A program made the position numbers and the translations under genes. Positions 35,128-64,000 of a stretch of 64,000 nucleotides of DNA are shown here, piece after piece; positions within the stretch are counted from its first letter, which is position 1; each line of letters begins with the position of its first letter. Below the pieces are notes generated by a model. It was not told the DNA's origin, made no database searches, and saw only the letters and a list, made by a program, of their open reading frames with translations. The DNA comes from a candidate division FCPU426 bacterium (lineage in GTDB: Bacteria > Oederibacteriota > Muellerivitia > Muellerivitales > Muellerivitaceae). The stretch is from positions 141,508 through 205,507 of the forward strand of contig CAVYSE010000011.1 of NCBI GenBank assembly GCA_963771075.1, read 5' to 3'.

Positions 35128-35131
35128 GTAT

Positions 35132-40654: not shown

Positions 40655-40697
40655 TAAAAAAAGCAGGCTGGTTTAAAAACCAGCCTGCTTTTTTTGA
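40655..40697. terminator. Bidirectional rho-independent terminator between acs and the convergent DRTGG gene
   Basis: Perfect 11-bp stem GCAGGCTGGTT-taaaa-AACCAGCCTGC, flanked by an A-run upstream and a T-run downstream. Confidence 0.85.
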
Positions 40698-40704
40698 CTA
40701 AACC

Positions 40705-45739: not shown

Positions 45740-45886
45740 TTGGTTTTCATTCCATTCGCAAAACCGGGCGCTTACCGGGCTTTGGAGAACCATCCGCCGG
45801 CCAAGAATCACCGAAGAGAAAGTAGGGCCGGAGACCGCTTAACCCTTTCAAGGACGCGTTGATTATAAGTTAATGACCCTTTCATG

Positions 45887-45904
45887 CTATGACTCAAGTC
45901 ATAT
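45887..45904. promoter_or_regulatory. Palindromic motif site CTATGAC-tcaa-GTCATAT, with an overlapping degenerate copy at 45871-45888
   Basis: Lies in the divergent region between the CoA-transferase/pat operon (minus) and the deacetylase gene (plus). Confidence 0.5.
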
Positions 45905-46090
45905 CATGAAGGGGCGGGGTTAATTTTTTCCCAAAGGACGAAATTATTAACAACACTCATTTCATTATTGGATAATTGTCCGGACAAAAACAATTGAACT
46001 TGGTGAAATTACCTTAACTTGACTTAGCCAAAGGACAAAATTAACATGCATTATTATTTTCATTTTTTTTAGTTTTTTAAAAGGCCAAGA

Positions 46091-47044: not shown

Positions 47045-47186
47045 TTCAATTTTTGGTTTTCACTTTGCAGAAATAGAAGCGCCTTTCTCTTTTCCATGAC
47101 TGTCTCCTAAATTTCCATTTTAAATGTTTTTGTCCTCCTGTTTATTTACGCTGTGACTTTGAATGATTTATTGTCACAAATGTTTA

Positions 47187-47204
47187 ACATGACAACTGTC
47201 ATAA
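47187..47204. promoter_or_regulatory. Palindromic motif site ACATGAC-aact-GTCATAA (~120 nt upstream of the beta-barrel gene)
   Basis: Matches the 7-4-7 consensus with one flank mismatch. Confidence 0.5.
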
Positions 47205-47325
47205 TAACTTCACCCCGCTGGTCCTAAAATCGCTTCTCGTTGATTCTTTTCCCACGACAATCAATTGACCTCCCGGATTTTGTCGGTTCGCGAGAGCGAA
47301 AAAAACTTTCAAGGAGAAAGAAAAT

Positions 47326-48558
47326 ATGAAAAGGTTTTTGTTTTTTTCGATTTTGACTTCCCTGTTTCTGGCGGGATGGGGTACTAAGGTTTTCGCCCAA
47401 GCTACCGAAGTTAAGAATCAGGGAACCCCGGCGGTGACTCCTGAGGCGACGATGGCCGTACCCGCCTCTCCGGTTATAACGGTGGGTGGCTTGGTGGATG
47501 CGTACTATACCTACAACTTCACCAACTCCAGCAAAAACATGAACGGCCACGGAAACGTTGGATACAGCTATGACAACCTTAACGCCGTAGGTTTGAACAA
47601 CGTCGACGATGTTTTCTCCCTGGGCGTGGCGGAATTGATCGTGAAGATGAAGCAGGGCGACGTCAGCGGGATCGTGGCGATATGGACACAGATGGAAGCG
47701 GGCAACTCCGTTATGAACATCTTGGTGGCCAACGCGACCTACTCCCCCGGGCAATTCGCCTTCATGGCCGGCCGTTTCGGTGATTTTATGGGGAACGAGG
47801 CGTTCGATACCAACATGAACTGGAACTACAGCCATTCGCTCATGTACAACGATACCCTGCCCTTGTGGCTTCAGGGTGTTAGCGCCGCCTATATGCCTTC
47901 CGATTCCTTCAAGGTCACGGCTTACGCGACGGAAGGATGGATCAACGACCCGGGTAATATGAACGATTATGGGAAAACCTACGGGTTGGCGATTAACATC
48001 AAACCCGATGAGGTTTGGGGCGTGAAGTTGAACGGAATTGCCGGGCCGAACGAAGGGTATTACTCGAGCGTCACGAATCCGGGGGACTCCCTTTACGTGG
48101 GCGAACTCATCCTCAAGTGCACGGCGACCCAAGACTTTTCATGGGCCCTGGATGCCGAGTATGGCGGGTTGGACCCTGTGGCCGAGGATCATTTGGCCAG
48201 CTTGAGCAGTGAGACCTTCTGGGGCGCGGCCCTTTACGGCAGATACAACATCGCGGCGGACTGGAACATTGGACTTCGTCTGGAAGAATTGGAATCGAGC
48301 AATAGCTGGCTTTATAACGGCATGATTCCTTCGGTCACACCTTATGTGGAAACCCGAGAAGCCACTTTGACGCTATCCAACCAAGTCACGAAAAACCTGT
48401 TGCTCCGCCTGGAAGGCCGTTACGACATGGCCTTGACCGGCGGAACGATGGATGCGGCCGAGACCACCTCTCCCACGGGCGGGGTTTACGTTGGGCCTTA
48501 CGCGGGCGGGTCCGGCGATCAATTGACGACCACCGCCAGCGCGGTGTTGAGCTTCTAA
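47326..48558 (+). CDS. Outer-membrane beta-barrel protein (putative porin)
   Basis: Signal peptide, then alternating amphipathic beta-strands rich in Y/N/G and a C-terminal ...AVLSF ending in an aromatic residue, which is an OMP signature. Confidence 0.6.
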   Translation: MKRFLFFSILTSLFLAGWGTKVFAQATEVKNQGTPAVTPEATMAVPASPVITVGGLVDAYYTYNFTNSSKNMNGHGNVGYSYDNLNAVGLNNVDDVFSLGVAELIVKMKQGDVSGIVAIWTQMEAGNSVMNILVANATYSPGQFAFMAGRFGDFMGNEAFDTNMNWNYSHSLMYNDTLPLWLQGVSAAYMPSDSFKVTAYATEGWINDPGNMNDYGKTYGLAINIKPDEVWGVKLNGIAGPNEGYYSSVTNPGDSLYVGELILKCTATQDFSWALDAEYGGLDPVAEDHLASLSSETFWGAALYGRYNIAADWNIGLRLEELESSNSWLYNGMIPSVTPYVETREATLTLSNQVTKNLLLRLEGRYDMALTGGTMDAAETTSPTGGVYVGPYAGGSGDQLTTTASAVLSF

Positions 48559-48582
48559 TCGAGCCTTAAGGGAACATTTTTC

Positions 48583-48650
48583 CAAAGGCTGAAACCTCTA
48601 TTTGACGCCGTGTTTTAATTTCTCTGAGGTTTCAGCCTTTTATTTTTTGA
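48583..48650 (+). terminator. Candidate terminator after the beta-barrel gene (13-bp stem AGGCTGAAACCTC...GAGGTTTCAGCCT with a long loop, then a T-run)
   Basis: Perfect 13-bp inverted repeat followed by TTTTATTTTTTG. Confidence 0.45.
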
Positions 48651-48702
48651 CGGTTGATCGGATGGGCTTGTGCGTATTCATCTAATAAAGGAGGCAGGAA
48701 CA

Positions 48703-49302
48703 ATGACGACTCAAAGTGAACCCATGAAGCTTGCGGACACTACTGCTAATCCGGCACCCTTGGGCTTGTTGGGCTTCGGGATGACGACCGTGTTGTTAAA
48801 CTTCCACAACGCGGGGTTTTATGCTCTGGATTCGATGGTCTTGGCTATGGGCATTTTTTACGGCGGCTTAGCCCAGGTGATCGCAGGGGTCCAAGAATGG
48901 AAAAAGAACAACACCTTCGGCGCCACGGCCTTTACTTCCTACGGGATGTTCTGGCTGACCTTGGTGGCTCTGCTGACCCTGCCCAAGCTGACGTTCCTGG
49001 GTTGGGCTGGCCCGGATGCCAACTCCTTCTCGGTTTACCTGGCTCTCTGGGGTATCTTTACATTGGTTATGTTCGTGGGAACTTTAAAACTCAACCGCGC
49101 TCTACAGGTTGTTTTCGGATCGCTCGTTATTCTTTTCTTCATGCTTTCCGCCGGCAAGGCAATGGGAAGCGAGGATATCATCCACATCGCCGGGTATGAG
49201 GGTATATTCTGCGGGGCATCGGCGATCTATACCGGGCTGGCCCAGGTCCTCAACGAGGTTTACGGAAAAGTGGTTTGGCCGCTGGGACCCGTGAAGAAAT
49301 AG
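48703..49302 (+). CDS. satP: Succinate-acetate/proton symporter (GPR1/FUN34/YaaH family, SatP)
   Basis: Hallmark N-terminal NPAPLGLLGFGMTT and a 6-TM profile. RBS AAGGAGG lies 8 nt before ATG 48703. Confidence 0.85.
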   Translation: MTTQSEPMKLADTTANPAPLGLLGFGMTTVLLNFHNAGFYALDSMVLAMGIFYGGLAQVIAGVQEWKKNNTFGATAFTSYGMFWLTLVALLTLPKLTFLGWAGPDANSFSVYLALWGIFTLVMFVGTLKLNRALQVVFGSLVILFFMLSAGKAMGSEDIIHIAGYEGIFCGASAIYTGLAQVLNEVYGKVVWPLGPVKK

Positions 49303-49361
49303 TCGGACAAAGTTAAACGGCTATTAGGACTCATTTTAAATTATTTTAGTTTTATGTTTAT

Positions 49362-49392
49362 GAAACCCGCCCCAATGGGCGGGTTTTTTGTT
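49362..49392 (+). terminator. Rho-independent terminator after satP
   Basis: CCCGCCC-caat-GGGCGGG stem followed by TTTTTTG. Confidence 0.75.
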
Positions 49393-49597
49393 AATTACCA
49401 TGAAAAGATTATAGAAATAAGCCAAATTTCTTCTTTTTACTCTTTGGAAATCCTCTTTATTTTCATGACTGAAATCATAGAAATAACGGGCTCGATTTTT
49501 GTCGTAATCCATTATGTTTCTTCGGCCCTATACCTTGCCCTTTAGTTGGCATGTCGTTACAATTTATAAAAGGAGTTGAAAAGGGGAGGAATGCGCA

Positions 49598-50296
49598 ATG
49601 CTTCATTCACAAACATCGCCCGGCAAACAACCTAACATGGTTGGCCGCTCCTTTATTTCCTCCCTGGAAGTTTTCAAAAAGATCCCATCTTCCCACCTGC
49701 TTGAACTCGAAAAGAAAATGGTTGAGCGCAAGTATGCCAAGGGTGAATCCCTTTTCCTCGAAGGCGACCCGGCAGAATACGTCTGGTTTGTCAAGGAAGG
49801 CCATGTCAAGGCCGTTATCCATACCGCCAATGGGCGGGATTTGACCCTCTGTATGGTGGGGGCGAATAGTCTTTTCGGGACCTGCTGCTGTTTCGGAGGG
49901 GGAGAATATCCCTGTCACAGCGTGGCGGAAACTGAAACCACAGTCGTGGCCCTTCCCATGCAGGAGTTCATCAATCTTTTGGATAAATACCCGGAAGTTG
50001 GTAAGTCCATCGTTTTCCACCTTTCCAAACGCTTACGCCAGGCCAAAGATATGCAGACCTTTGACCAGGAAAGCGTGGAAAAACGGATTCTTCACCTTCT
50101 CGTGAACCTTGTGGCTGAATTCGGCAACACCATCCCCTTGACCCGGCGTGAGATCGCGGAAATGACTGGAACAACGGTGGAAACTTGTATCCGAACCTTT
50201 TCCAATCTTGAAAAGGAAGGGTTGGTTTCCAGCGCTAGGGGAAAGATTACAGTAAAAAGCGTACAAGATTTGATCGATCGGCAGGAGGAACTTTAA
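49598..50296 (+). CDS. CRP/FNR-family transcriptional regulator with a Cys cluster in the sensor domain
   Basis: cNMP-binding-like beta-roll (KGESLFLEGDPAEYVWFVKEGHVK), then the HTH REIAEMTGTTVETCIRTFSNLEKEGLV, whose recognition helix is FNR-like (E..R conserved). Unusual TCCCFGGGEYPC cysteine cluster. Confidence 0.8.
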   Translation: MLHSQTSPGKQPNMVGRSFISSLEVFKKIPSSHLLELEKKMVERKYAKGESLFLEGDPAEYVWFVKEGHVKAVIHTANGRDLTLCMVGANSLFGTCCCFGGGEYPCHSVAETETTVVALPMQEFINLLDKYPEVGKSIVFHLSKRLRQAKDMQTFDQESVEKRILHLLVNLVAEFGNTIPLTRREIAEMTGTTVETCIRTFSNLEKEGLVSSARGKITVKSVQDLIDRQEEL

Positions 50297-50931: not shown

Positions 50932-51783
50932 TCAACTTAATTTCCCAGTCTGGTAGTCCATGAAAGCCTGCTTCAGTTCCCCCATTGTGTTCATGACGAA
51001 GGGCCCCCCACGGACGATTGGTTCTTCGATCTTCTGCGCGCTGGCGAAGAGGAAATGAACTGCATTCTTGGTGGCGGATTGAACTTGCACCCAGGTTCCC
51101 GGCCCGAAAATTCCAAGATGGGCTTTTGGAACGGACTGGTTGTTTTTTTGACCGCCCGTTTGTGCCTGACCCTCAATGACGTATAAAAAGGCATTTTGAT
51201 TTTCGGGAATTGGAAGGGAAAAGACCGAACCTGGCTCCAGTTTGATATCCAAATAAGTAAAAGGGATGAAGGATTGGGCTGGACTTTTAAACCCGCCGTA
51301 TTCACCGGCCAAGACCTTGACCCTTACCCCATTTCCGTCAACCATCGGCAATAACTCTTTACCGATGTCCTGGTAGCGCGGGTTTGTCATTTTCTGTTTG
51401 GCGGGAAGGTTCAGCCACAACTGAAATCCCCAAGCCAAACCATCGGTTTGTTCAGGCATTTCGCTATGAATTAGGCCGCGGCCGGCGGTCATCCATTGGA
51501 TAGAACCGGCGGTTAAATGGCCTTCGTGCCCCTTGGAGTCGCGGTGCGTGAAGGCCCCCGCCATCATATAGGTGACGGTCTCGAACCCACGGTGGGGGTG
51601 GTTGGGAAATCCAGCTCTGTAATCATCCGGATTGTCATTCTTGAATTCATCCAGCAAGAGAAAAGGGTCCAAATGGTCCAATTCTCGGGTGCCGATGATG
51701 CGCTTTAGCTTGACCCCGGCGCCATCCGAGGTGGGGATTCCTGCGTGGATTTGAACAATGTCTCGAATTAGAGTTTCTTTCAT
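50932..51783 (-). CDS. Pirin-family cupin protein
   Basis: Pirin N-terminal motif FPNHPHRGFETVTYMMAG...H.DS.G is present, followed by a C-terminal cupin domain. Confidence 0.85.
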   Translation of the reverse strand: MKETLIRDIVQIHAGIPTSDGAGVKLKRIIGTRELDHLDPFLLLDEFKNDNPDDYRAGFPNHPHRGFETVTYMMAGAFTHRDSKGHEGHLTAGSIQWMTAGRGLIHSEMPEQTDGLAWGFQLWLNLPAKQKMTNPRYQDIGKELLPMVDGNGVRVKVLAGEYGGFKSPAQSFIPFTYLDIKLEPGSVFSLPIPENQNAFLYVIEGQAQTGGQKNNQSVPKAHLGIFGPGTWVQVQSATKNAVHFLFASAQKIEEPIVRGGPFVMNTMGELKQAFMDYQTGKLS

Positions 51784-51972
51784 TCGTTAGCTCCCTTGGA
51801 CCACAACATTAGGAAAAGAAAATAAATAAAGCCAGTAGTTACCGGTTGACCACTTGTTCGAAGGAGGGAAAGGGTAAATAGTACCCAATGGATTTATAAG
51901 ACCCGGTATGAAACCCAAATTTGAAGCTGTGGATCCATATTTCCTTCTTATTTTAGGGCATATGGGATTGGC

Positions 51973-53790
51973 ATGGCGGTTGCTGTGGTAATGGATATGA
52001 ACAGCGGTGCCCTTATTGCCCATCCTAAGCCGCTCCTAGAACACTTCGCGTGGTTGCGGTATTTCCGTTTGCCTTCTTTAAATTCCAAAAACACCAAAAA
52101 GGACGCCTTGGTCAGTTTGAGGGCCCTCTTTTTATTAGTGATGCTGGTCCTGCTGTTCTTTAGCCCGAACCCGAGGTTAGGTTCAAACGAACTCGCTTTA
52201 GAAATCTATCTCGGTCTTTTTGGTTTATCGGTATTTGGAATGTTTTTTGTCAAAAAAGAATGGCTGGAACTTAAATTCACCCTTCCCGCCATTTTTTTGA
52301 TGGATACCTTTTTTATAACAATCGGGTTGTATTTGGTGGGGTTGGCCGATAGCGACCTATTTTTGGTCTTTTTCACCACTGTTTTCATCTCAGCCCTCTC
52401 CCAGGATGTGAAAAGCGTTTGCTTGGTGGCCGGTGTTTCCTGCCTGCTTTATGGTTTCCTTGAGTTCCGTGAAACGGGTAATTTTTGGATCAGCGACACG
52501 AATTTCCTGGTTCGTTTTCCTTTTTTGATCGTGGCGGCGACGATGAGCGGTTTTTTGGCCATGGATACCAAGCGCCATAAGGAAGAAACTTCCCGTCTCC
52601 AAGTCATGAACCGGTTTCTCGCGGAACAGGCGGATGTTTCCACCCTGAAACTCTTTGAGACGAACCAAAAGATGAAAAGTTTGCTCGAGTATCACCATTG
52701 TGTACTCTTCTCAATTAAGACGGGGATTATCGTGGTCCAGAAAGATGGGAGGGTGCGAACCTTTAATTCGGGGGCCCGCCAGATCACGGGATGCGTTGAG
52801 GCCGAAATGGCCGATATTTGTCTGGACCAATTTCCTGAGAATTTGAAGCCGGTTTCCCGAGCCCTTCAAAGAACCTTGATCGAAGAAAAGTCGTTTGTCA
52901 TGGAAAACCTGGATCTCAAAAGTACCCGGTCCGAAATCGTGCCCGTGAACCTGGAGACCTCGCTTCTGCGGGATGGGACGGGTCAAATTATAGGCGCCAT
53001 CGCGACCCTCAAGGATATATCCCTTCTGAACCAACTGGAAAGGCAGTTGGTTCGAAGCGAACGGTTTTCGGCATTGGGTGAGATGGCGGCGGGCATGGCC
53101 CATGAGATCAAAAACCCCCTTAATTCAGTCCAGGGTTTTTCAAAACGCCTCTCCGCCAAGATCTCCGATCCCAGTCTGAAGAAATACGCGGATATCATCG
53201 CGGAAGAAGTGGGCCGGATGGACAACATCGTAAACGAAATATTGGATTTCAGCCGCACCGATACGCTTCACCGATCCTGGGTGGATTTACATCAGATGAT
53301 GCGCGAAACGGTGGCGTTTTTAGGGGAAAAAATCGAAAAGGCCAATGTGGTCGTCAAAGAGGAATTTCTTCAAGACCTACCCCAGGTGGAAGCGGACCTG
53401 CCCAAAATCAGGCAAGTGGTCTTGAATTTGATCCTGAACGCCGTTCAAGCCATGCCCCAAGGCGGAACCCTGACCTTAAAAACGAAATTTTTGGATGGGT
53501 TCATTCCCAAAGGCGAGGTGAAAGTGAGTAAAGATTTGGCTTATCAACAGTTGTTTTTACAGGAAAAAATGGTGGTTCTAACGGTCCAAGACACGGGTTG
53601 CGGCATACCCGCTGAGAATTTAGCCAAAGTTTTCCAACCCTTTTTTACCACCAAGATCACGGGTACCGGATTGGGATTGAGCGTGTGCCATAAGCTTGTC
53701 GCGGCGCATGGAGGGACGTTGGACGTAGAAAGCACGGTAGGGGTGGGGACGTCGTTTTCAATTTATTTGCCGGTTCATCAGGAGGAGTAA
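51973..53790 (+). CDS. Sensor histidine kinase with multi-TM N-terminus, PAS domain, HisKA and HATPase_c
   Basis: About 6 TM helices. H-box HEIKNPLNSV, N-box LNLILNAVQAM and G-boxes DTGCGI, GTGLGLSVCHKLV are present. Confidence 0.8.
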   Translation: MAVAVVMDMNSGALIAHPKPLLEHFAWLRYFRLPSLNSKNTKKDALVSLRALFLLVMLVLLFFSPNPRLGSNELALEIYLGLFGLSVFGMFFVKKEWLELKFTLPAIFLMDTFFITIGLYLVGLADSDLFLVFFTTVFISALSQDVKSVCLVAGVSCLLYGFLEFRETGNFWISDTNFLVRFPFLIVAATMSGFLAMDTKRHKEETSRLQVMNRFLAEQADVSTLKLFETNQKMKSLLEYHHCVLFSIKTGIIVVQKDGRVRTFNSGARQITGCVEAEMADICLDQFPENLKPVSRALQRTLIEEKSFVMENLDLKSTRSEIVPVNLETSLLRDGTGQIIGAIATLKDISLLNQLERQLVRSERFSALGEMAAGMAHEIKNPLNSVQGFSKRLSAKISDPSLKKYADIIAEEVGRMDNIVNEILDFSRTDTLHRSWVDLHQMMRETVAFLGEKIEKANVVVKEEFLQDLPQVEADLPKIRQVVLNLILNAVQAMPQGGTLTLKTKFLDGFIPKGEVKVSKDLAYQQLFLQEKMVVLTVQDTGCGIPAENLAKVFQPFFTTKITGTGLGLSVCHKLVAAHGGTLDVESTVGVGTSFSIYLPVHQEE

Positions 53791-53793
53791 GCC

Positions 53794-54186
53794 ATGGATA
53801 AAAGACAAATATCAATATTGGTGGCCGAGGATGAAGACAACGCCCGTTTGCTTTATTTTGACGAACTCTCGGATGAGGGATACCGCGTCTACCCCGCCAT
53901 GAATGGCCTTCAAGCCTTGGGCCTGCTGGAAGATAACAAGATCGATTTGGTCGTCACCGATATCAAAATGCCGGACATGCATGCCTTGGAGATGATCCCC
54001 TGGATCCGGGCTGAATACCCCGGATTGCCGGTCATCGTGGTTTCGGCTTTCAAGGGCATGGAAAATGACTTCAATTTGAAAGAAAATTTCATCGATGGCT
54101 TTTTCGCAAAACCAGTGAATATGGAAGCGCTGAAAAGGAAAATAGAAGAAATCTTGACCAGCCGTTTGGCGCACCATGCCGCGTAA
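53794..54186 (+). CDS. Single-domain response regulator (CheY-like receiver)
   Basis: The sequence ILVAEDEDNARL...DLVVTDIKMPDM...VIVVSAF contains the phospho-acceptor Asp. RBS GGAGGAG precedes the start, 4 nt after the kinase stop. Confidence 0.8.
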   Translation: MDKRQISILVAEDEDNARLLYFDELSDEGYRVYPAMNGLQALGLLEDNKIDLVVTDIKMPDMHALEMIPWIRAEYPGLPVIVVSAFKGMENDFNLKENFIDGFFAKPVNMEALKRKIEEILTSRLAHHAA

Positions 54187-54467
54187 ATGAACCTTCATAA
54201 ATGGTTTCAACCTGGGTTGGGGCATGATTGCATGAGTTCTGTTTTATTGATGTCCTCCATCATCTGAAATTGTGCGGCAGTCCTTCCATTTTGTGGTCCT
54301 ACTCAAAGATGTTTTTTCCATTTGAGAATTATTTACACAGCTCCTCCGAACCTTTTTAATAGGATCAACACATTTTCTTTTGCAGCCAAAGGGAGTGTTA
54401 GAATAGGAAAACCCAATACGCTCCGATTGGGACCGGCGACCCAGCGGCTCAAGAAAAGGCGTATACG

Positions 54468-57400
54468 ATGAAACCCGTCCCTGGCGACTCCAACCCAGAT
54501 TCCGAAGAGAAACGATTGCTTCTCATTTGCCATGAGGATCTAATCGCCTCGCGTATCCTTAAAATCCTTGAAAAGATTTCTGTGGAGCCATACGCCGTTG
54601 AGCGAGCGATGATTTTCGGACAGGTTTTCAAGGCGGTGGCAAACCCAAGTTTCCACATTTGTTTGATCGTGGAAAGCACCGACCCGAATCAAGCCCTTAG
54701 TTTTTTGCATACCTCCCTGTTGAAACAACGCGACATTCCAATAATCCTCCTGAGCCATATGGACCCGGACGCGGGGACGGTGGAAGCGTTCCGACTCGGG
54801 GCCGCCGATTTCATTTCGTTGAATCAATTAGACGCGACGGTTTTGGAGCGCTCCCTCCGCTACGCCCTCGAACGCAAAAGGGCGAGAGATGCCGTCCGTG
54901 AGAGTGAGGATTTTTTTCGCGTCGTCATCGAGAATAATCAAGACGGCATCTCGGTCATCGACCCGAATGGAAAAGTCCGCTATACCAGTTCTTCCTTGTC
55001 GAGGATATTGGGTTATAGCCCCGAGGAAAGGATCGGTAAATATACGTTCGATGTTTTGCACCCCGATGACATGAATTGGATCCAAGAAGCGTTCAAGGGG
55101 TTGTTGCAAAATCCGGGAAGTGTTCAAAAGGGACAAGTTCGCGCGCGACACAAAGACGGCGCTTGGCGTTATTTGGACTTGGCCGCGAAAAGCCATTATT
55201 TTTCCCAGTATTCCTCCCTCGCCGTGGTTTTGAATTACCGGGATGTGACCGACCGGGTCAAAGCCCAACAGGTCACGGAACGGCTGGCCTCTATTGTCGA
55301 TTCCTCCCATGACGCCATTTATACCCTTTCCCGGGAAGGCGTCATATTCAGCTGGAATCCGAGGGCCCGGGAAATCTATGGATTTCCGCCCGAGGAAATC
55401 AGCGGCCGGCATTTTTCGCTCATCATGGATCAGGATGAAAGCAACCGTTTTCAAACAACGCTGGAAGAAGTTTTTGAAGGCCGGGGACCGAATTCTTTTC
55501 AAACAACCCACCGCTCAAAGGTCGGGAAACTCATTTCTGTTTCCTTGGTCCTTTCCCCGATTAGGGATTCCAAGGGACAAATTAACCGGGTTTCAGTTAT
55601 CGCACGGGATATTTCACCCGAATACAAGTTAATGGAAATCGGGAAACGGCTTTCCAGCCTTCTCGAGAACGCGCCCACCGCCATTTACAGCGGGGACAAA
55701 GAAGGCGTTATCACGATGTGGAGCCGGGGAGCGGAGAAAATATTCGGTTATAAAGCGGAGGAAATGATCGGCCAAAAAACCGATATTTTGGAAGTGCCCG
55801 AAAATCCGGGCGAGATTGCGAAGTTACGAAAAGAAGTGAACGATGGAAAGGCTCATATCCATTATGAGACCGTACGCCGTCGTAAAGACGGAAGCCGGGT
55901 CAACATGATATTCCAGATATTCCCGGCTTTGGATGCCAATGGAAAAAATGTCGGAGTAACCGCGATTGGGGAGGACGTTACTTCCCGAATGATAGCGGAA
56001 CGGGCTTTAAATGAAAGCGAGGCCCGTCTTCGTGATATTTTTGAAAAGAGCCCCTTGGGAATGGCCTTGACGACCACCAGCGGTCTATTGAGGATCGTCA
56101 ACCCGAAGTTTTGCCAGATGCTTGGATATGAACCTTCCGAATTGATCGATCGGCCCATTATGGAGATCAGTTACCCCCAAGACCTGCCGAGAGAAGTGGA
56201 GGGGATGAGAAATTTAATCCAAGGAAAAATCGGTTACTTGGAATTGGATAAAAGATACCTCCATAAAAGGGGGCATTGGATATGGACCCATCTGGTCGCT
56301 TCCATGTTAACCCCCGAAAAAAGCGAGGATAACCTGGTATTGGGAATGGTGGAGGATATCACGGACCGGGTCTTCGCGAAGAGGGCTTTGGAGGAAAGCG
56401 AGGCCCGATTCAAGCAGATATTTCATGAAAGCCCCATTGGTATGGGTTTGGTGCGGCAGGACGGCATCGTTTTGATGATCAATCCGAAGTTCTGCCAGCT
56501 TCTGGGATATAACGAGTCCGAATTGATCGGCCGAAATTATTTTGAGTTCATTTCGCCGGACGAACTAAAAGAAGCCAAGGATAACCTGGCGGCCATGTAC
56601 CGGGGAGACCGGCATTCCTATTCGGTTGAACGGCGGTACCGCCGCAGGGATGGCCAATGGTTTTGGGGCCATATGGAAGTGACCAGGATGAAAACAGCCG
56701 AAGGCGCCCCGCTTTTGGCTTTCGGAATGTTGGAAGACATCAGCGAACGCAAGAAATCGCAGGAAACAAGGGAGTTCCTGGTCAATGTACTCGAAAACAC
56801 CGGGGAAGCCGTCATCACCGCCGACTTGAACGGGACCTTGCTTAGCTGGAACAAGGCAGCGGAAACCCTTTACGGATTCACGGCGGCGGAGGCGATAGGC
56901 AAAAAAGCCCGGGATCTCATGCCGGAAGGAAAAGCGCGGGAAATTCAAGCGTTAATGGATCGGTTCATTCAGGGGGAGAAAATTAAGAACCATGAAATGA
57001 TCCGCTTAAAGAATAACGGGGAGCCTTTTTACGCCTCCATCACCTTTTCATTGTTAAAGGACGAAAGGGGCGCCAAAAAGGGCATTACCATGGTCATCCG
57101 GGACGTCAGTGAAATGAAAAAGGCCCGTAAGTCCCAAGACCGATTGGCGAACATCCTTGAACATTCCTATGACGCCATCCTTGGCATCGATATGGAAGGC
57201 GTGATCACCCATTGGAATATAGGCGCCGAGACAATGTTCGGATACACCGCCTCGGAAGCGCACGGCCAAAACATCCAATTGCTGGTCCCGGAGGAATATC
57301 GGTCGGAAACACGTTATTTGATGGAAAAAGCGGTCAAGGGGGAGTCGGTCGGAAATTTCGAGACCGTGCGGAGAAGAAAAAACGGTTCCCTGATCGACGT

Positions 57401-59018
57401 GTCCCTCAATGTCTCGCCTTTCAAAGATGACTCAGGGAAGGTCACGGCGGTTTCGGCGATATTACGGGACATCACGGAAACGAAAAAGGCGCGGGAAACG
57501 CGGGAGCGTTTGGCGGATATTTTGGAAAACAGCCCCATTGCCATCACCACGACCAATCTGGAAAGGAAGTTCATTCAATTCAACCATGCGGCTGAAAACC
57601 TTTATGGGTATAAAGCGGAGGAGATGTTGGGGAAAACCCATCGGACCCTGGTGCCGGAGGATCATTGGCAGCAACATTTAGAGGTCCGGGAAAATGTGCT
57701 CCAAGGGCAATCCGTCGTTCATTTTGAGTCGGTCCGGCGGAGAAAGGACGGGCAACCGATCGCGGTTTCAAGCACCCTTATTCCCTACCGGGATAGTGAA
57801 GGGAAAATCATGGGAGTCACGGCGATGTCGGTCGACATCACGGAACAAAAAAAAGCCGCGGAGACGCTGAATCGAAAGGAAGAGCAGATCAAACTGGCCC
57901 AGAAAATGGAAGCCATCGGCCGATTGGCGGGGGGAGTCGCCCATGACTTCAACAACCTATTGAGCATTATCGGGGGTAACGCCAACTTTGTCCTGGATGA
58001 CCCTGCCTTTGAAGGACCCCACCGGGAAGAATTGGAAGAAATCAAGAAAGCCGTCCAGCAGGGGTCCGATTTAACCCGCCAACTGCTCTTGTTGGGGCAA
58101 AAGCAAATCTCCCAGGCCCAACCTATCCAACTCAACGATCTTTGCCGGGAAATGATGAAAATGTCCAAGCGGTTAGTGGACGCGTCCATCGAAATCACAC
58201 TCGACCTGGAAAAGGACCTGCACCCCATCTTCGCGGACCTGATCCAGATCCAGCAGGTGATCCTAAACCTGGTGTTGAACGCCCGGGACGCCATGCCGCG
58301 GGGCGGGAACCTGAGGATCCAAACCCGAAACGAGGTTTCGGAAGGCCAGCCATTTCTTTCGGAATACGCCTCCTGGGTCAAGTTGACCGTCACGGACACG
58401 GGAGTCGGGATGGATGCCCAGGTTCAAAAACATATCTTTGAACCCTTTTATACCACGAAGGGTGCGAAAGGAACCGGGTTGGGATTGACGACTGTTTATG
58501 GAATCGTGAAGCAATGGAAGGGACAGGTTCAAATCGAAAGCGCGGTGGGCCAGGGAACTTCTTTTTTCATATATTTCCCGGCTCATGAATCCGTGGAGAA
58601 ACAACCGGGTTTATCCCGACAGGTTTCCCTGATACCGAATGGTTCCGAAACCATCCTGGTGGTCGAGGACGAGCCCTCGGTCCGTCAGATCGTGGTCAAG
58701 AGTCTTCGAAAATGGGGATATAAGGTTCTGGAAGCGGAAAATGGGGTGGACGCAGTTCGGGAAAGTTGGAATTATAAAGGGGAAATCCACCTGCTTTTAA
58801 CCGATACCGTCATGCCTAAAATGGACGGGTTTCAGCTCGCGGAAGAATTAAGAAACACCAGGCCGCGGATGAAGGTGCTTTTCATGTCGGGATACCCGCG
58901 GGATATCCTTTCCAGCAAAGGGATATTGAACCCGGACATCTTTTTAGTGAGAAAACCATTCGCGAAAGATGAGCTTGCCCAACAAATACGGCAATTGTTG
59001 GACCAAAAGAAAAAATAA
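54468..59018 (+). CDS. Giant hybrid sensor histidine kinase (N-terminal receiver-like domain, about 8 PAS/PAC domains, HisKA, HATPase_c, C-terminal receiver)
   Basis: Repeated PAS cores are present (e.g. ...NPKFCQMLGYEPSELIDRP..., ...NPKFCQLLGYNESELIGRN...). H-box LAGGVAHDFNNLL; G-box GTGLGLTTVYGIV; C-terminal REC (LVVEDEPSVRQ...LLLTDTVMPKMDG). Confidence 0.85.
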   Translation: MKPVPGDSNPDSEEKRLLLICHEDLIASRILKILEKISVEPYAVERAMIFGQVFKAVANPSFHICLIVESTDPNQALSFLHTSLLKQRDIPIILLSHMDPDAGTVEAFRLGAADFISLNQLDATVLERSLRYALERKRARDAVRESEDFFRVVIENNQDGISVIDPNGKVRYTSSSLSRILGYSPEERIGKYTFDVLHPDDMNWIQEAFKGLLQNPGSVQKGQVRARHKDGAWRYLDLAAKSHYFSQYSSLAVVLNYRDVTDRVKAQQVTERLASIVDSSHDAIYTLSREGVIFSWNPRAREIYGFPPEEISGRHFSLIMDQDESNRFQTTLEEVFEGRGPNSFQTTHRSKVGKLISVSLVLSPIRDSKGQINRVSVIARDISPEYKLMEIGKRLSSLLENAPTAIYSGDKEGVITMWSRGAEKIFGYKAEEMIGQKTDILEVPENPGEIAKLRKEVNDGKAHIHYETVRRRKDGSRVNMIFQIFPALDANGKNVGVTAIGEDVTSRMIAERALNESEARLRDIFEKSPLGMALTTTSGLLRIVNPKFCQMLGYEPSELIDRPIMEISYPQDLPREVEGMRNLIQGKIGYLELDKRYLHKRGHWIWTHLVASMLTPEKSEDNLVLGMVEDITDRVFAKRALEESEARFKQIFHESPIGMGLVRQDGIVLMINPKFCQLLGYNESELIGRNYFEFISPDELKEAKDNLAAMYRGDRHSYSVERRYRRRDGQWFWGHMEVTRMKTAEGAPLLAFGMLEDISERKKSQETREFLVNVLENTGEAVITADLNGTLLSWNKAAETLYGFTAAEAIGKKARDLMPEGKAREIQALMDRFIQGEKIKNHEMIRLKNNGEPFYASITFSLLKDERGAKKGITMVIRDVSEMKKARKSQDRLANILEHSYDAILGIDMEGVITHWNIGAETMFGYTASEAHGQNIQLLVPEEYRSETRYLMEKAVKGESVGNFETVRRRKNGSLIDVSLNVSPFKDDSGKVTAVSAILRDITETKKARETRERLADILENSPIAITTTNLERKFIQFNHAAENLYGYKAEEMLGKTHRTLVPEDHWQQHLEVRENVLQGQSVVHFESVRRRKDGQPIAVSSTLIPYRDSEGKIMGVTAMSVDITEQKKAAETLNRKEEQIKLAQKMEAIGRLAGGVAHDFNNLLSIIGGNANFVLDDPAFEGPHREELEEIKKAVQQGSDLTRQLLLLGQKQISQAQPIQLNDLCREMMKMSKRLVDASIEITLDLEKDLHPIFADLIQIQQVILNLVLNARDAMPRGGNLRIQTRNEVSEGQPFLSEYASWVKLTVTDTGVGMDAQVQKHIFEPFYTTKGAKGTGLGLTTVYGIVKQWKGQVQIESAVGQGTSFFIYFPAHESVEKQPGLSRQVSLIPNGSETILVVEDEPSVRQIVVKSLRKWGYKVLEAENGVDAVRESWNYKGEIHLLLTDTVMPKMDGFQLAEELRNTRPRMKVLFMSGYPRDILSSKGILNPDIFLVRKPFAKDELAQQIRQLLDQKKK

Positions 59019-59043
59019 ATAAAGCTCCCGAATTCCCTGTGAA

Positions 59044-60396
59044 TTAAACCTGGTCTTTCTTCAAACCGTAACGTTTCAACTGGTTAAAGAGGGTTTTACG
59101 GGTAATGCCCAGTAAATCGGCGGCCTTGGATTTATTCCCCTTGGTCATGGTCAGGGCCCGTTGAATATTCAAAATATCCGATTCCTTCTGTTTCAACACG
59201 GGTTTATCCAAGGAGGGGAAGGGTTTTACCTCCCGAACTTCTTTCGGCAAGTCTCTCAGGGTCAAGCCGCCTCCCTTGGCCATTACCACCATGCGTTCAA
59301 TCAGGTGTTTGAGTTCACGAACGTTTCCGGGCCAGGAATAGGCTTGCAGGGCCGAAAGGATATCCTTGTTTAGGAGGCTTAGGTTTTTATTGAAGGCCCG
59401 GCAGGCCTCCTGGTGGAAAAATTGAGCCAATTGGGCGATATCTTCCGACCGGTTGCGCAGCGGGGGGATTTCCAAGGGAACCACATTCAAGCGATAAAAC
59501 AAATCGGCCCGGAACCGGCCTTCTTTGACCTCGTTCTCCAGGTTGCGGTGGGTCGCGGTAATGATGCGGACGTCAAAGGGGATTTCTTTCACGCCGCCTA
59601 GCCTGCGGGAGGTCTTTTGCTCCAATACCTTCAGTAATTTGGTCTGAACCGCCTGGGTGAGCTCACCAATTTCATCCAGGAAAAGACTGCCCCCGTTGGC
59701 GATCTCGAACAAACCCTGTTTCTGCCTGCGGGCATCGGTGAAAGCACCCTGCTCATAACCGAAAAGCTCGGATTCCAGAATCGTTTCCGGCAAGGCTCCG
59801 CAATGGATTTCCACAAAGGGCCTGGAGGCGCGGGAAGAAAAGGAATGGACCAACCGGGCCACATGCTCCTTTCCCGTTCCCGTCTCCCCCAGGATCAAAA
59901 CCGTAATTTGGTCCTGCTGGGCGACCTGCGTTATGGAGGTATAAAGTTTTTGCATTTCCGGGTTGGAGAGGAAAAGGTAATCCTTGCGGTACATTTCCAA
60001 CTGGTTTTTCTTGAGTCCCTCGATTTGGGTGATCAGGCCCCGCTTCTCGGCGATGTGTTTCGTGATGAGTTTGAGTTTTTGGTGATCGATGGGTTTCTCG
60101 AGATAATCCTCCGCGCCAAGCTTCATGGCCTGAACGGCCGAGTCCACCGTACCCCCTCCGGTGATGATGACGACGGAGCAAGCGCTATAGGCCTGGTTCA
60201 GCTTTTCCAACACTTCCATGCCGTTGACGTCGGGCAGGTGAATGTCCAAAAGAAGCATGTCAGGCTGGATGATCTTATGCTTTTCGATCCCCTCGGACGC
60301 GGTATAGGCGGGATAAACCTCGTGGCCTTCTTGGGTCAATATTTTGGAAAGGATTTTGACGAGGGATTCTTCATCGTCCAAGATCAGAATTTTCAA
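59044..60396 (-). CDS. NtrC-family sigma-54-dependent response regulator (REC, AAA+ sigma-54 activation domain, Fis-type HTH)
   Basis: REC (ILILDDEES...LLLDIHLPDVNG), Walker A GETGTGKE, GAFTDA motif, ESELFGYEQGAFT and C-terminal HTH. Confidence 0.85.
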   Translation of the reverse strand: MKILILDDEESLVKILSKILTQEGHEVYPAYTASEGIEKHKIIQPDMLLLDIHLPDVNGMEVLEKLNQAYSACSVVIITGGGTVDSAVQAMKLGAEDYLEKPIDHQKLKLITKHIAEKRGLITQIEGLKKNQLEMYRKDYLFLSNPEMQKLYTSITQVAQQDQITVLILGETGTGKEHVARLVHSFSSRASRPFVEIHCGALPETILESELFGYEQGAFTDARRQKQGLFEIANGGSLFLDEIGELTQAVQTKLLKVLEQKTSRRLGGVKEIPFDVRIITATHRNLENEVKEGRFRADLFYRLNVVPLEIPPLRNRSEDIAQLAQFFHQEACRAFNKNLSLLNKDILSALQAYSWPGNVRELKHLIERMVVMAKGGGLTLRDLPKEVREVKPFPSLDKPVLKQKESDILNIQRALTMTKGNKSKAADLLGITRKTLFNQLKRYGLKKDQV

Positions 60397-60592
60397 GGTT
60401 GAGCCTGCTTGTGTGAAATTGTGTTTATAGCTTATGCATAGTTTAACGTTGGATTATTTAGCAATAGATGAAAAATTTTAATTCGCGATTCGAGTGTCAT
60501 GGTCAATTGGGTAATAAATACTCACTCGGAAAAGGAATACCCTCCAATAAATCGGGTAGTGAAGAAATACCCTTTGAAACGGGGCCATCTAT

Positions 60593-60608
60593 TGGCATGC
60601 CCCATGCT
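60593..60608 (+). promoter_or_regulatory. Candidate sigma-54 (-24/-12) promoter TGGCAT-N5-ATGCT upstream of the 60677 gene
   Basis: The GG and GC dinucleotides are spaced as in the TGGCAC-N5-TTGCW consensus. It lies about 70 nt upstream of the ORF start, divergent from the NtrC-family activator. Confidence 0.45.
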
Positions 60609-60676
60609 TTATCTATGACGAAGGGTGGGAAACGGGACTCGCAGGAAAGGCGTTTCGCACGGCAAAGGGGGCTGAC

Positions 60677-61807
60677 ATGAAGAAAACGCGAAAATTAATT
60701 GAAGTGACCATCCTGATTCTCGTTTCGGCGATGGTTTCGGGAGCCCGTGCGGGCCAACCCCAATCCGGCGAGGAGTTCAAGGGACTCCTGCCCGCCAAAG
60801 CCATCCTGCTTACCCAAGCTTCTTATGACCTTCGCCAAACCGGGTCGGCGGACCACCTGGTCTATTACTTGGCCGGGAAAACCTGGGGAATGGCGGTCAT
60901 CAGCCGAGAGAATACACTCCTTTTTAAATATGAAAAAACCAATGTGGACCATTTGTATTTTCAGGGCAAACAGAATCCGGGAGTGGTTTTCCTGGACGAG
61001 GTCAGCAAGAAGCCATTTCTGGTCTATAACAATTACTCGGATGCCATCCACTCCGAATACCACATCTTTCGATGGGCGGGATCTTCCTTTGAGGAAGTGA
61101 ACCATCCACGGTGGGGGGACAATCCCCAAATCCAGGAGTTGGATAATCAAGTCGTGGTCGTCACCGATAATTTTGGAAATGGCGTACCCTCGGTTTACCA
61201 ATACCGGCAGGGAGGGGTCGTCGAGGCCAACCGGGATTTTCCGTTCTTTTTCGAAGCCGCAGTGAAAGAGGCTTGGAAGGCCCTGGAAGATCCGGTCCTG
61301 GGCATCTTGCCGGGAGCCATGGCGGCGAAAGCGGCCTATTTGCCCGCTTTCCTTTACTCGGGGAAAGAGTCGGACGGGCTCAGATACGCCGACCGGCTCC
61401 TTCAATCGGGGCCTTCCGAGTTGACCGCGTCGGTATTGGCCGGAATCCACATGGGCAAAGGGAACCTATGGATGGCGATGGGGAAGGAAGAAGAGGGGAT
61501 GAACGAATTCCAATTGGCGGACCGGTTGGAACATGGCGCTAAAAGCGCGGATGGCGCCGGAGCCTTTATCAAGATGGCCCTCTTTTTTGAATCCCAAGGC
61601 GATCTTCATCGCGAAGCGCTGGCCTATGAAAAGGCATTGAACCGTTTGGGCCAAAGGGATCGGGCGCAAGCGGAGCAATTAAGGGAAAAGGTGTCACGGT
61701 TGTTGGAAATAATGGACGCAAAAGGAGTGAAAGAAAGCCAAGGGACCCAGATTGATCTGGGCCACCCCTTGACGGTGACGACCTCCCGCAGGGGAGGAAT
61801 CCAATAG
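60677..61807 (+). CDS. Hypothetical secreted protein with C-terminal TPR-like helical repeats
   Basis: Signal peptide MKKTRKLIEVTILILVSAMVSGARA. The C-terminal alpha-helical repeat region is ...LFFESQGDLHREALAYEKAL.... Confidence 0.5.
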   Translation: MKKTRKLIEVTILILVSAMVSGARAGQPQSGEEFKGLLPAKAILLTQASYDLRQTGSADHLVYYLAGKTWGMAVISRENTLLFKYEKTNVDHLYFQGKQNPGVVFLDEVSKKPFLVYNNYSDAIHSEYHIFRWAGSSFEEVNHPRWGDNPQIQELDNQVVVVTDNFGNGVPSVYQYRQGGVVEANRDFPFFFEAAVKEAWKALEDPVLGILPGAMAAKAAYLPAFLYSGKESDGLRYADRLLQSGPSELTASVLAGIHMGKGNLWMAMGKEEEGMNEFQLADRLEHGAKSADGAGAFIKMALFFESQGDLHREALAYEKALNRLGQRDRAQAEQLREKVSRLLEIMDAKGVKESQGTQIDLGHPLTVTTSRRGGIQ

Positions 61808-61920
61808 ATCGATGGATTTAAAATTTCAGGAAGGGTAGAAGGAGGCGGGACGAAATCCCCCTCCTTTTTTATGTGGGTAGAAACATGGCGCGGGGGGAAG
61901 TTCAACCCGGTTTATCCTCT

Positions 61921-62268
61921 TTAAAGGATTTCCCTCAAACGGTCCGCGGGGCGGGCCAGGATGGCCTTCGCTCCCTTTTCCACAATGGGTCGTTGGATCA
62001 ATTCCGGATGTTTCTCCATGAGGTCCAGGTAATCCTCCTCGGAAAGTTCTTTTTTGGAAAGACCGAGGGTTTTGTAAATTTCCTCCTTCGTCCGAAGAAG
62101 CTCCCGGGCCGGTATTTCCATTTTTCTCAGAAGTTCCTTCAACTTGGTTTTGGGGATAGGCTCCAGGAAATAATTCACCGAATCGAAATCCACGCCGCTT
62201 TCCTGAAGTGCGTTATAGACCTGGCGGCAGGTGGTGCAGGTGGGTTTTTGATAAATCGTGATTTTCAT
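61921..62268 (-). CDS. ArsC/Spx-family protein (CxxC thioredoxin-like fold)
   Basis: The N-terminus MKITIYQKPTCTTCRQ is comparable to Spx/YusI LYTSPSCTSCRKA. About 115 aa. Confidence 0.75.
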   Translation of the reverse strand: MKITIYQKPTCTTCRQVYNALQESGVDFDSVNYFLEPIPKTKLKELLRKMEIPARELLRTKEEIYKTLGLSKKELSEEDYLDLMEKHPELIQRPIVEKGAKAILARPADRLREIL

Positions 62269-62314
62269 GGTTCCTTCCGGGTTCGGTGGATGGGCAAGGC
62301 CCTACAACGGGAGT

Positions 62315-63169
62315 TTAACGGGCCCAGCAAAACCAAATCAAGGAGGCAAGGGCTAGGCAGTAGATGCCGAAATAACTCCACTTTCCCTTTTCCAGCCAGC
62401 TGGAAAGCCAGCGGAGGGCCAAAAGCCCGGCTCCGAAACTGAAGATCAATCCCAAAACGTCCTGGGCCAGCAGATGGGATAGGCTTTCCGTTCCCGGGCC
62501 GGAAAGGGCGTGCGATTTAATGAGGCGCCATAACTCTTTCCCCAAGGCGAAGGGCGTGATGGCTACCGCCAGGGCGAAGCTGTACTCCTCGGCCTTGCGC
62601 CGGTTCAAGCCCAGCATGAACCCGGTGGAAATGGTGGCGCCGGAACGGGACAGGCCCCGGAAGGGCAGGCAGAGCCCCTGCACCAGGCCGATCCAAATCG
62701 ACTCCTTCGGACCCAGTTTTCCCCCTTCGCCCTCGGGCGGTACCCGCAGGGAAGCCGCGAGGATGAGAAGGCCCGCCGAGGCCAGCGCGGCGGAAACCAG
62801 CTTCAGGTTCCCGAAAAGCATTTCAATCTCGGCGCTTGGCGTGGACCGAAGCATCCACTTTTCAATGACCTTCATCAGGATAAAGCCCAGGACCAGGGTG
62901 ACACCCGTGGCGAGGAGAACCTGTTTGAAGAAGGCCGTTCTTTTTTCAGGGGAAAGGAAATAATGGATCCGCCAATCCTTCCAGAAATAAACCAGCACCG
63001 CGAACATGGTTCCCGTATGAAGCATGACCAGCAAAAGGGTCATGGCGGGACGGGCGGGGTCCAGGCCCAACAGCTTTTCCGCCAAAATGACATGGGCGGA
63101 GGAGGAAACGGGTAAAAGCTCCGTCAGGCCCTGGACAATGGCCAAGACGATGATCGCCAAAAAACTCAC
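62315..63169 (-). CDS. uppP: Undecaprenyl-diphosphate phosphatase
   Basis: BacA/UppP motifs ...GLTELLPVSSSAHVIL... and ...GLSRSGATISTG.... GTG start with RBS AAGGAG. Confidence 0.85.
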   Translation of the reverse strand: MSFLAIIVLAIVQGLTELLPVSSSAHVILAEKLLGLDPARPAMTLLLVMLHTGTMFAVLVYFWKDWRIHYFLSPEKRTAFFKQVLLATGVTLVLGFILMKVIEKWMLRSTPSAEIEMLFGNLKLVSAALASAGLLILAASLRVPPEGEGGKLGPKESIWIGLVQGLCLPFRGLSRSGATISTGFMLGLNRRKAEEYSFALAVAITPFALGKELWRLIKSHALSGPGTESLSHLLAQDVLGLIFSFGAGLLALRWLSSWLEKGKWSYFGIYCLALASLIWFCWAR

Positions 63170-63205: not shown

Positions 63206-63694
63206 TTACCGGGTGGGGGTCAACAAGGCTTCCTGTCGCCGCTGGGCGGTGGTATGGGGGAAGAGGGTGCCGGGAACGTTGTAACGGTCCAGGATCATGT
63301 AAGCGTCGTAAATTTTACCGGAACCATTTTGATTAAAGCATTGGATGGTGTATTGAATGCCGGGAATATAGTTGGGATCGTTCGGAGCCACCCCGCCTTG
63401 CGGGGGTTGGGTGCCCGTACTCTTGTTCGCCACCTTGGTGACTGAGAAATAACGGTAGGTGTGGCCATAACAAATTTCAGCGGCCCGGTAAAGCGCCGCG
63501 AATTTGACGAAATCCATCTGCCGCGATTGGGCCACAAAGACCACCTCGAAAACCCCGCCGCCCAAATCCTTATCCGAGTATCCGCCTCCGTAAATATTGG
63601 CCTTTTCATAATTGGTCATGGGAGCGACGCAGCCTGAAACCATCAGGACACCCAACAGGATAGAGAAGGGGTGGCGGATAATTTTGAAATTCAT
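63206..63694 (-). CDS. Hypothetical lipoprotein
   Basis: Lipobox LMVSGC after a signal peptide. RBS AAGGAG lies 6 nt before ATG 63694. Confidence 0.55.
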   Translation of the reverse strand: MNFKIIRHPFSILLGVLMVSGCVAPMTNYEKANIYGGGYSDKDLGGGVFEVVFVAQSRQMDFVKFAALYRAAEICYGHTYRYFSVTKVANKSTGTQPPQGGVAPNDPNYIPGIQYTIQCFNQNGSGKIYDAYMILDRYNVPGTLFPHTTAQRRQEALLTPTR

Positions 63695-64000
63695 GATTTT
63701 CTCCTTAAATAAAAGGGTAAGCATAAAGCCGAGTGTTGAAAAGGTTGGCCAAACGGGGCCTTTTCAAAAAAGGGGTTGGGACCCGCCAGGGATTATAAGG
63801 GGTTTCGATCTTTTTGGAATCAGGGGAAAGGGCTCTCCGTTGTTTTTCCAACCCTATTCCTCCTTATATTTCCAAAGGCGCAGTGAAACAATAAGACTTA
63901 CAATCCAATCCGTTTCTTGCGCTGGTTCGTCTAAACTCACATGCGGATGGTCAGGAGGGCGCTTTGAATCATGGGACTAAAATTTTCGCGCTTTTGTTTT

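Follow-up and report, generated by a model that had tools for sequence, protein, structure and literature searches.

The stretch of DNA analysed here, referred to throughout as the window, is a 64 kb segment of contig CAVYSE010000011.1 (assembly GCA_963771075.1, positions 141,508 to 205,507) from a bacterium of candidate division FCPU426, and between 51.9 and 61.8 kb it carries a compact signalling cluster built around an NtrC-family activator. The list of open reading frames (ORFs) places five signalling genes together with a single target gene in this region, and all ORFs noted in an initial annotation of the window are present. Domains were called with Pfam, plus NCBIfam, and domain content, motif positions and conservation were compared with contigs of relatives, which are given L numbers below. 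On the forward strand lie a membrane sensor histidine kinase, HK1 (51997–53790), a single-domain response regulator (53794–54186), a cytoplasmic hybrid histidine kinase of 1516 amino acids (aa; 54468–59018) and a 376-aa orphan protein, the target (60677–61807). The reverse strand encodes the activator, an NtrC-family sigma-54 enhancer-binding response regulator with a TTG start (59044–60396). The initial annotation had counted two kinases in addition to the hybrid; by Pfam there are two in total, the hybrid included. The closest long relatives of the locus are metagenome-assembled genomes labelled candidate division FCPU426, the contigs having been recovered from peat and soil, and an identical target gene is found on a 1.5-kb NCBI fragment of assembly GCA_052916065.1 (L009). 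The gene order pirin, (HK1, receiver), hybrid kinase, activator, target, ArsC and BacA, in which the bracketed pair is variable, is shared by the window, L001 and L003. L010 has a similar core order, as does the part of L011 that was examined. The activator gene divergently adjoins the target in five lineages.

The activator has the Pfam architecture of its family, with receiver, Sigma54_activat, AAA_lid_14 and HTH_8 domains, as had been anticipated when the gene was described as a divergent NtrC-type activator. Its receiver (Response_reg, 89 bits) retains DD (7–8), D51, T79 and K101, all invariant in five orthologues. The central domain (PF00158, 225 bits) has Walker A (GETGTGKE), Walker B (LFLDEIGEL) and arginine finger (RADLFYRL) motifs, and both Walker motifs and the sigma-54 contact loop, GAFTDA, are invariant in the same five proteins. 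The helix-turn-helix (HTH_8, 37 bits) includes an invariant LGITRKTLFN motif and is nearly invariant across lineages; the orthologues as a whole are 67–80% identical to the window protein. GAFTDA is listed among the GAFTGA variants expected to stay active, and it is present in DVU2106, an enhancer-binding protein of Desulfovibrio vulgaris to which target operons have been assigned (PMC4641369). The best NCBIfam matches of the activator are AtoC, a PEP-CTERM regulator, NtrC and ZraR, all far under their equivalog cut-offs (410.7 bits against 714 for AtoC; 332 against 760 for ZraR), and the cut-offs of every named group compared (AtoC, NtrC, ZraR, GlrR, LuxO, FlgR and the PEP-CTERM regulator) are missed. 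The nearest structures in the PDB are NtrC4 and NtrC1 of Aquifex (E = 1e-96 to 1e-91). The activator is an NtrC-family response regulator outside any named orthologous group.

A sigma-54-type -24/-12 element, TGGCATGCCCCATGCT, lies on the forward strand at 60593–60608, its 3' end 68 nucleotides (nt) ahead of the ATG of the target at 60677, and is the TGGCAT-N5-ATGCT element that had been placed about 70 nt upstream of this gene. The strict pattern TGGCAY-N5-WTGCW occurs twice in the 64 kb against 0.22 expected, at least two occurrences being reached in 2 of 100 shuffles. Both matches (60593 and 51969) fall between genes, point the same way as the gene downstream and keep GG and GC at a spacing of exactly 10 nt. 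Loss of the element upstream of orthologues was one of two findings that, by the initial annotation, would have refuted its reading, and no such loss was seen. TGGCA[CT]-N5-NTGC is found at the equivalent position upstream of the target orthologue, or of a two-gene operon that includes it, in nine loci (the window, L001, L003, L005, L010, L011/L017, L014, L015 and L016). The element reads TGGCACGTCCTATGCC in L001, TGGCACGTCCCATGCT in L003, TGGCACATCCTTTGCG in L005 and TGGCACGACAGTTGCC in L010, L011/L017, L014, L015 and L016 alike, within intergenic DNA of ~59% mean column identity. Transcription of the target is predicted to start near 60619, which would give a 5' untranslated region of ~58 nt with a GGGGG Shine-Dalgarno sequence. 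Within this predicted leader, at 60625–60660, GTGGGAAACG and CGTTTCGCAC make up an inverted repeat with a 16-nt loop that has no obvious counterpart in the leaders of the orthologues.

Upstream of this element is a palindrome that is a good candidate for the activator's operator. In eight loci GGGTA-N5-TACCC begins 84–87 nt upstream of the T of TGGCA, L015 being left out of this count as it is cut by the contig end. The palindrome is exact in L001, L003, L010, L011 and L014 (84–86 nt), has one mismatch in L016 and three in L005, and in the window is represented by GGGTAATAAATACTC at 60509–60523, 84 nt upstream of the -24 T. These loci include lineages in which the target is only 34% identical to that of the window. 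Taking both promoters of the cluster and all loci together, the palindrome lies 81–97 nt upstream of the -24 element, inside the range of ~70–150 bp expected for an upstream activator site. Because the helix-turn-helix of the activator is nearly invariant across these lineages, the palindrome is the best candidate for its site, and we predict that GGGTA-N5-TACCC is bound by the activator. Further TACCC/GGGTA half-sites (AAGGAATACCCT, GGGTA and AAGAAATACCCT; direct repeat D1) at 60532–60573 are possible secondary activator sites. A block, GGAAAAGGAATACCC, 19 nt downstream of the palindrome is shared by the window, L001 and L003, and in L001 and L003 it lies 65–66 nt upstream of the -24 element. 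As the palindrome is situated between divergent genes, it could also serve autoregulation of the activator gene.

The target itself has no Pfam or NCBIfam match at E ≤ 0.01, TPR profiles included, and only six homologues were present in a collection of 5.8 billion proteins, with a few more obtained from collection scans. The N-termini of all homologues share a basic n-region, then a hydrophobic stretch, then a small-x-small site; the predicted signal peptide of the window protein runs MKKTRK…VSGARA and is followed by GQ. A putative N-terminal beta-rich domain precedes a C-terminal half that appears helical and TPR-like. To call the protein exported, with a TPR-like C-terminal half, is fair, and the earlier label of a secreted TPR-like protein is half right, since as regards TPR it applies to the C-terminal half only. 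The target is part of a two-gene operon in the more distant L010/L011/L016 lineage, where an orphan gene of 159–168 aa without a Pfam match stands between promoter and target homologue (L010 9508–9987, L011 2626–3132, L016 2484–2951). In more distant relatives a third, near-consensus sigma-54 element, TGGCACCGCTCTTGCT, is found ahead of another orphan gene, encoding a cytoplasmic protein of 163–165 aa, on the reverse strand beside the activator gene (L010 7225–7765, L011 365–892, L016 195–729, L005 198–689); in L005 the homologous gene is divergent from the target gene, and no homologue of this protein was detected in the window. The small associated ORFs of the relatives returned no Pfam or NCBIfam match. 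In the two closest relatives, L001 (11248–14562) and L003 (11156–15064), the target is followed on the same strand by genes for a receiver, a receiver-PAS histidine kinase and a second receiver, and these three genes are probably co-transcribed from the sigma-54 promoter. They are missing from the window, in which the target runs directly into ArsC and BacA.

HK1 consists of a multi-pass DUF4118/PilS-like membrane region, one PAS domain, HisKA and HATPase_c (Pfam), with the H-box HEIKNPL. Its best NCBIfam matches, AtoS and ZraS, are both under cut-off (311 bits against an equivalog cut-off of 646 for AtoS), and the 6TM_PilS model of Pfam scores 17.6 bits against a cut-off of 27, short of a PilS-type assignment. 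A search with the membrane region recovered four further homologues, on contigs L018, L019 and L020. The lone receiver begins 4 nt past the HK1 stop codon and has intact Asp, Ser and Lys positions; Response_reg (74 bits) is its only Pfam domain, as expected of the lone receiver noted earlier. A homologous kinase-plus-receiver pair is also present in L003 and L019. In L018 and L019 the kinase gene is located away from the activator cluster, and L020 is too short for a call.

The HK1 gene has a promoter of its own that the initial annotation overlooked, although it overlaps the coordinate 51973 at which that annotation began the kinase. The sigma-54-type element TGGCATGGCGGTTGCT (51969–51984, forward strand) has one mismatch to TGGCACG-N4-TTGCW, and an exact GGGTA-N5-TACCC palindrome, GGGTAAATAGTACCC (51872–51886), the predicted enhancer of the kinase operon, lies 97 nt upstream of its -24 T. 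Equivalent palindromes occur 81–96 nt upstream in L003, L018, L019 and L020. The palindrome of L003 is at 468 and the -24/-12 element at 549, ahead of the HK1 homologue; in L018, L019 and L020 the palindrome (0–2 mismatches, 92–96 nt upstream) is followed by TGGCACG-N4-TTG[CA] immediately 5' of the kinase gene. The pair of palindrome and -24/-12 element is therefore kept in five loci with HK1 homologues. ATG 51973 sits within the element. Six HK1 homologues share the N-terminus M-(I)-N-[ST]-x-x-x-x-x-P-[KR], which continues as K-x-x-L-x-x-x-R-x-L into the first transmembrane helix, and a 1-nt indel between the window and L003 upstream of ATG 51997 puts the upstream extensions into different frames. 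Since the conserved N-terminus begins at ATG 51997 (MNSGALIAHPKP) and the frame above it is broken, this ATG is best taken as the start of HK1, and the stretch from ATG 51973 as a spurious extension.

This start codon all but abuts the promoter. In the five loci the A of the conserved ATG is 14, 15, 15, 17 and 17 nt past the C of the -12 GC, and the intervening bases are variable and without a Shine-Dalgarno-like run; other genes of the cluster have Shine-Dalgarno sequences (GGGGG for 60677, GAGGAG for 53794, AAAGG for 54468). Transcription from sigma-54 promoters, in the standard numbering, begins ~12 nt past the C of the -12 GC. With the ATG at approximately +3 to +6, the HK1 mRNA is therefore predicted to be leaderless or to have a leader of 2–5 nt. 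We propose, as a reading whose chances we place only just short of even, that in FCPU426 a sigma-54 promoter runs straight into the start codon of a sensor-kinase gene so that a leaderless mRNA, or one with a 2–5-nt leader, is made, and that the same activator also controls an exported orphan that is restricted to the phylum and combines a beta-rich domain with a TPR-like half. No paper linking sigma-54 promoters with leaderless mRNAs was found among the titles and abstracts searched, which is not proof of novelty.

A different explanation accepts the HK1 promoter as real and denies that its message is leaderless, either because translation starts downstream, for example at TTG 52117, or because the main transcript comes from a promoter further upstream. 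The start in L003 was called at a downstream ATG equivalent to TTG 52117, AAGGA is found 10–13 nt ahead of this downstream position in both the window and L003, and the transcription start of the HK1 promoter is itself a prediction from sequence. Against this, six homologues retain M-N-[ST]…P-[KR] at the upstream ATG, with the frame open for more than 45 codons despite diverged DNA; the spacing from the -12 element to this ATG is held at 14–17 nt in five loci; and no Shine-Dalgarno sequence separates the two. We regard a downstream start or an upstream transcript as rather unlikely and prefer the near-leaderless message. In the pirin-proximal part of the same intergenic region a block, CCAGTAGTTACC (51832–51845), is invariant in the window, L001 and L003, and may be a regulatory site of the pirin gene. 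At 4316–4560 in L001, upstream of the hybrid kinase, a one-mismatch palindrome, GAGTAATTCTTACCC, is kept; it may be a leftover from loss of the kinase-receiver module.

The hybrid kinase combines HisKA, HATPase_c and a receiver in a single polypeptide. Its N-terminus is a pseudo-receiver (aa 16–136; 54513–54875) that reaches only E = 0.11 with Pfam Response_reg but aligns by BLASTP (27% identity, E = 7e-11) with the N-terminal receiver of the L010 homologue, which passes Pfam (E = 3.7e-10). The Asp at the phospho-acceptor position (…CLIVES…) and the conserved Lys are lost. This is the degenerate N-terminal receiver-like domain previously suspected, and the PAS/PAC units, put earlier at about eight, number exactly eight by Pfam PAS, by TIGR00229 and by a hidden Markov model (HMM) built from the units, arranged back to back at ~122 aa each (aa 146–1132; 54903–57863). 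The kinase core (57918–58583) has HATPase_c and a HisKA domain that at 25.8 bits is slightly below the 26.9 cut-off, its AHDFNNLL H-box being present, and the C-terminal receiver (58653–58988) scores 75 bits; the Pfam annotation of both agrees with the initial one. Orthologues have 4 (L010), 7 (L001) and 10 (L003) PAS units by the unit-built HMM, and that of L001 has an internal duplication of a three-unit block. The two peptides on which duplicated PAS segments had been postulated, NPKFCQMLGYEPSELIDRP and NPKFCQLLGYNESELIGRN, are indeed present in the translation, in units 4 and 5, but these units are only 35% identical overall. A recent duplication was rejected: each resembles its counterpart in L003 more closely (47% and 67%), which dates the event to before the species split. 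In the window, as in L001, L003 and L010, the genes for the hybrid kinase and the activator converge on each other, separated in L010 by a 165-aa gene.

Conservation of the promoter and its palindrome, together with the divergent activator gene, supports the sensor-to-activator-to-sigma-54-promoter circuit first suggested for this cluster, with the connections of the kinases the more conjectural part. We think it very probable that, in general outline, the genes form a branched, multi-input two-component system of the NtrC/sigma-54 type. The activator would be phosphorylated on its receiver Asp, assemble on the GGGTA-N5-TACCC palindromes and, from ~85–95 bp upstream, open sigma-54 RNA polymerase complexes through ATP hydrolysis at two promoters. 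The promoter at 60593–60608 would drive the exported orphan protein, and that at 51969–51984 HK1 and the single-domain receiver, perhaps with read-through across a 281-nt gap into the hybrid kinase. Expression of HK1 under the activator would amount to positive feedback on sensory input.

Which kinase serves the activator is harder to say, and the specific wiring that follows is offered tentatively, with the balance leaning somewhat against it. HK1 would be the more likely direct phosphodonor because of its HEIKNPL H-box, its best matches to AtoS and ZraS and the presence of the activator's enhancer at its gene wherever this is found. The hybrid kinase, whose gene is kept beside that of the activator in the window as well as in L001, L003 and L010, is the other candidate, and it probably adds cytoplasmic inputs, by direct transfer or as a phosphate sink by way of its own receiver. 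For the lone receiver and that of the hybrid, a role as phosphate sinks or branch points is probable. It is also conceivable that there are two insulated pathways, HK1 signalling to the lone receiver only and the hybrid kinase alone controlling the activator, with the shared enhancer signifying that the activator regulates expression of the other pathway. This arrangement would fit the translational coupling of HK1 and the lone receiver (4-nt gap), their movement as a module away from the activator cluster in L019 and the retention of the hybrid kinase next to the activator in L001, where HK1 is absent. However, the DHp region of HK1, with HEIKNPL and matches to AtoS/ZraS, is of the class that partners NtrC-family regulators, the best matches of the activator are AtoC, NtrC and ZraR, and the hybrid kinase has a CckA-type AHDFNN H-box, its own receiver and no Hpt. 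We consider insulation the less probable arrangement by some distance and HK1 the preferred donor.

Several observations weigh against the circuit and its proposed inputs. No rpoN was found among 41 ORFs of the window that were scanned (most of those above 150 aa). The sigma-54 consensus with two mismatches is not enriched in the window (7 against 7.6 expected), and because of this the counts within the window are weak, the weight of the argument lying on position and cross-genome conservation. The L006/L013 lineage, alone among those compared, has a degenerate element, TGGCTTCTTTCTTGCC (TGGCTT-N5-TTGCC), with the GG-N10-GC spacing kept, and its target gene has no adjacent activator. The palindrome on the target side in the window departs from the consensus at one position. 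L001 lacks HK1 and the lone receiver beside the cluster, and its hybrid kinase has no -24/-12 element in front. Pfam detected no Hpt domain (PF01627) in any protein of the cluster, so that the hybrid kinase has no visible middle step for a classical His-Asp-His-Asp relay, although an Hpt may be encoded in another part of the genome. Finally, 60594–60608 scores as a small hairpin with a 6-bp stem followed by a T-rich run. That the target is read by a housekeeping sigma factor, with TGGCAT-N5-ATGCT arising by chance or forming a small hairpin or terminator, would accord with this hairpin and with the unenriched loose consensus, but we consider it very improbable. The GG-N10-GC core does not vary in sequence or position across the nine loci, and the stem is not preserved (for example TGGCACGACAGTTGCC); a palindrome lies at a fixed distance upstream; the adjoining gene encodes a sigma-54 activator; and sigma-70-like matches in the region are below chance (4 against 8.7 expected). 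The hairpin or terminator reading of TGGCATGCCCCATGCT was rejected on the loss of the stem in the orthologous elements, and scans of the region for sigma-70 promoters and terminators gave results below or at chance.

The sigma-54 circuit proposed here is close in plan to known systems. AtoS/AtoC and ZraS/ZraR of Escherichia coli and NtrC1/NtrC4 of Aquifex share the regulator design (receiver, AAA+ sigma-54 interaction domain, Fis-type helix-turn-helix), a kinase with PAS, HisKA, HATPase_c and a HEIKNPL-type H-box, the palindromic enhancer ~80–100 bp upstream of the -24/-12 element and the regulator gene adjoining its target. In contrast to these systems, the activator has GAFTDA rather than GAFTGA, scores stay far below every equivalog cut-off, the target is an orphan exported protein and not a metabolic or metal-stress operon, and there is an additional hybrid kinase with eight PAS units. 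DVU2106 of D. vulgaris Hildenborough is comparable in its GAFTDA loop; it is a single-component regulator, whereas the window activator is a response regulator. The multi-pass membrane kinase, which lacks a large periplasmic domain and continues into PAS, along with an NtrC-family activator and a sigma-54 promoter, recalls PilS/PilR, but here there is no pilin gene and the activator reaches no PilR-specific model. Membership of AtoSC or PilSR was rejected because the curated cut-offs of Pfam and NCBIfam are missed. The hybrid kinase resembles CckA-type multi-PAS hybrid kinases in its AHDFNNLL H-box, C-terminal receiver and N-terminal PAS repeats, and matches the NCBIfam CckA models at E = 1e-80 to 1e-112 (375 and 270 bits, against cut-offs of 1000 bits); it differs from them in its eight PAS units and pseudo-receiver, and no ChpT-like or Hpt partner was seen.

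The cluster is flanked, on the reverse strand, by the pirin gene (50932–51783) on one side and by the ArsC-family gene (61921–62268) and BacA (62315–63169) on the other. ORF 61873–62442 on the forward strand was rejected as a gene, being the shadow of the opposite-strand ArsC gene. Beyond BacA, 63206–63724 (reverse strand) encodes a lipoprotein of the CC0125/CC1285 family (NCBIfam, 49 bits against a cut-off of 40) that L001 and L003 also have in this place. The stretch 38478–50296, immediately upstream of the signalling genes, is an acetate/acetyl-CoA gene block encoding an AMP-forming acetyl-CoA synthetase, a DRTGG/AAA_26 protein, an ADP-forming acyl-CoA synthetase-like protein and an acetyl-CoA hydrolase/transferase, together with a BBP2 porin, a SatP/YaaH-family channel and a Crp/Fnr regulator; L001 shares the Crp and pirin neighbours. 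Genes for handling oxygen, nitric oxide and metals (21723–23280 and 31053–36223) include ScdA/hemerythrin (RIC-like), DUF2249-TusA, cytochrome oxidase subunits II and I, another hemerythrin and a VIT1 transporter, and a ZIP transporter (25755–26519) lies between the two groups. A 556-aa secreted protein without a Pfam match (10087–11757, reverse strand) contains a ~110-aa Thr/Pro-rich linker, (TPTxT)n, whose coding sequence is made up of degenerate tandem repeats of 18–54 nt; these account for a spike in GC skew (0.32) at 10–12 kb. An Rfam scan of the whole window gave zero matches.

Taken as a whole, the system is a standard NtrC-type circuit and opens no new question. What the analysis adds is the footprints of both promoters, a candidate operator, a corrected gene start and a conserved fusion of promoter and start codon. 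The abutment of promoter and start codon at HK1 is the sole unusual point of the system and, if confirmed, would be an instance of enhancer-dependent transcription coupled to leaderless translation. For the uncultured phylum FCPU426, the locus provides a directly testable cis-regulatory prediction, which names an activator with the palindrome it would bind, two promoters and a regulon of few genes.

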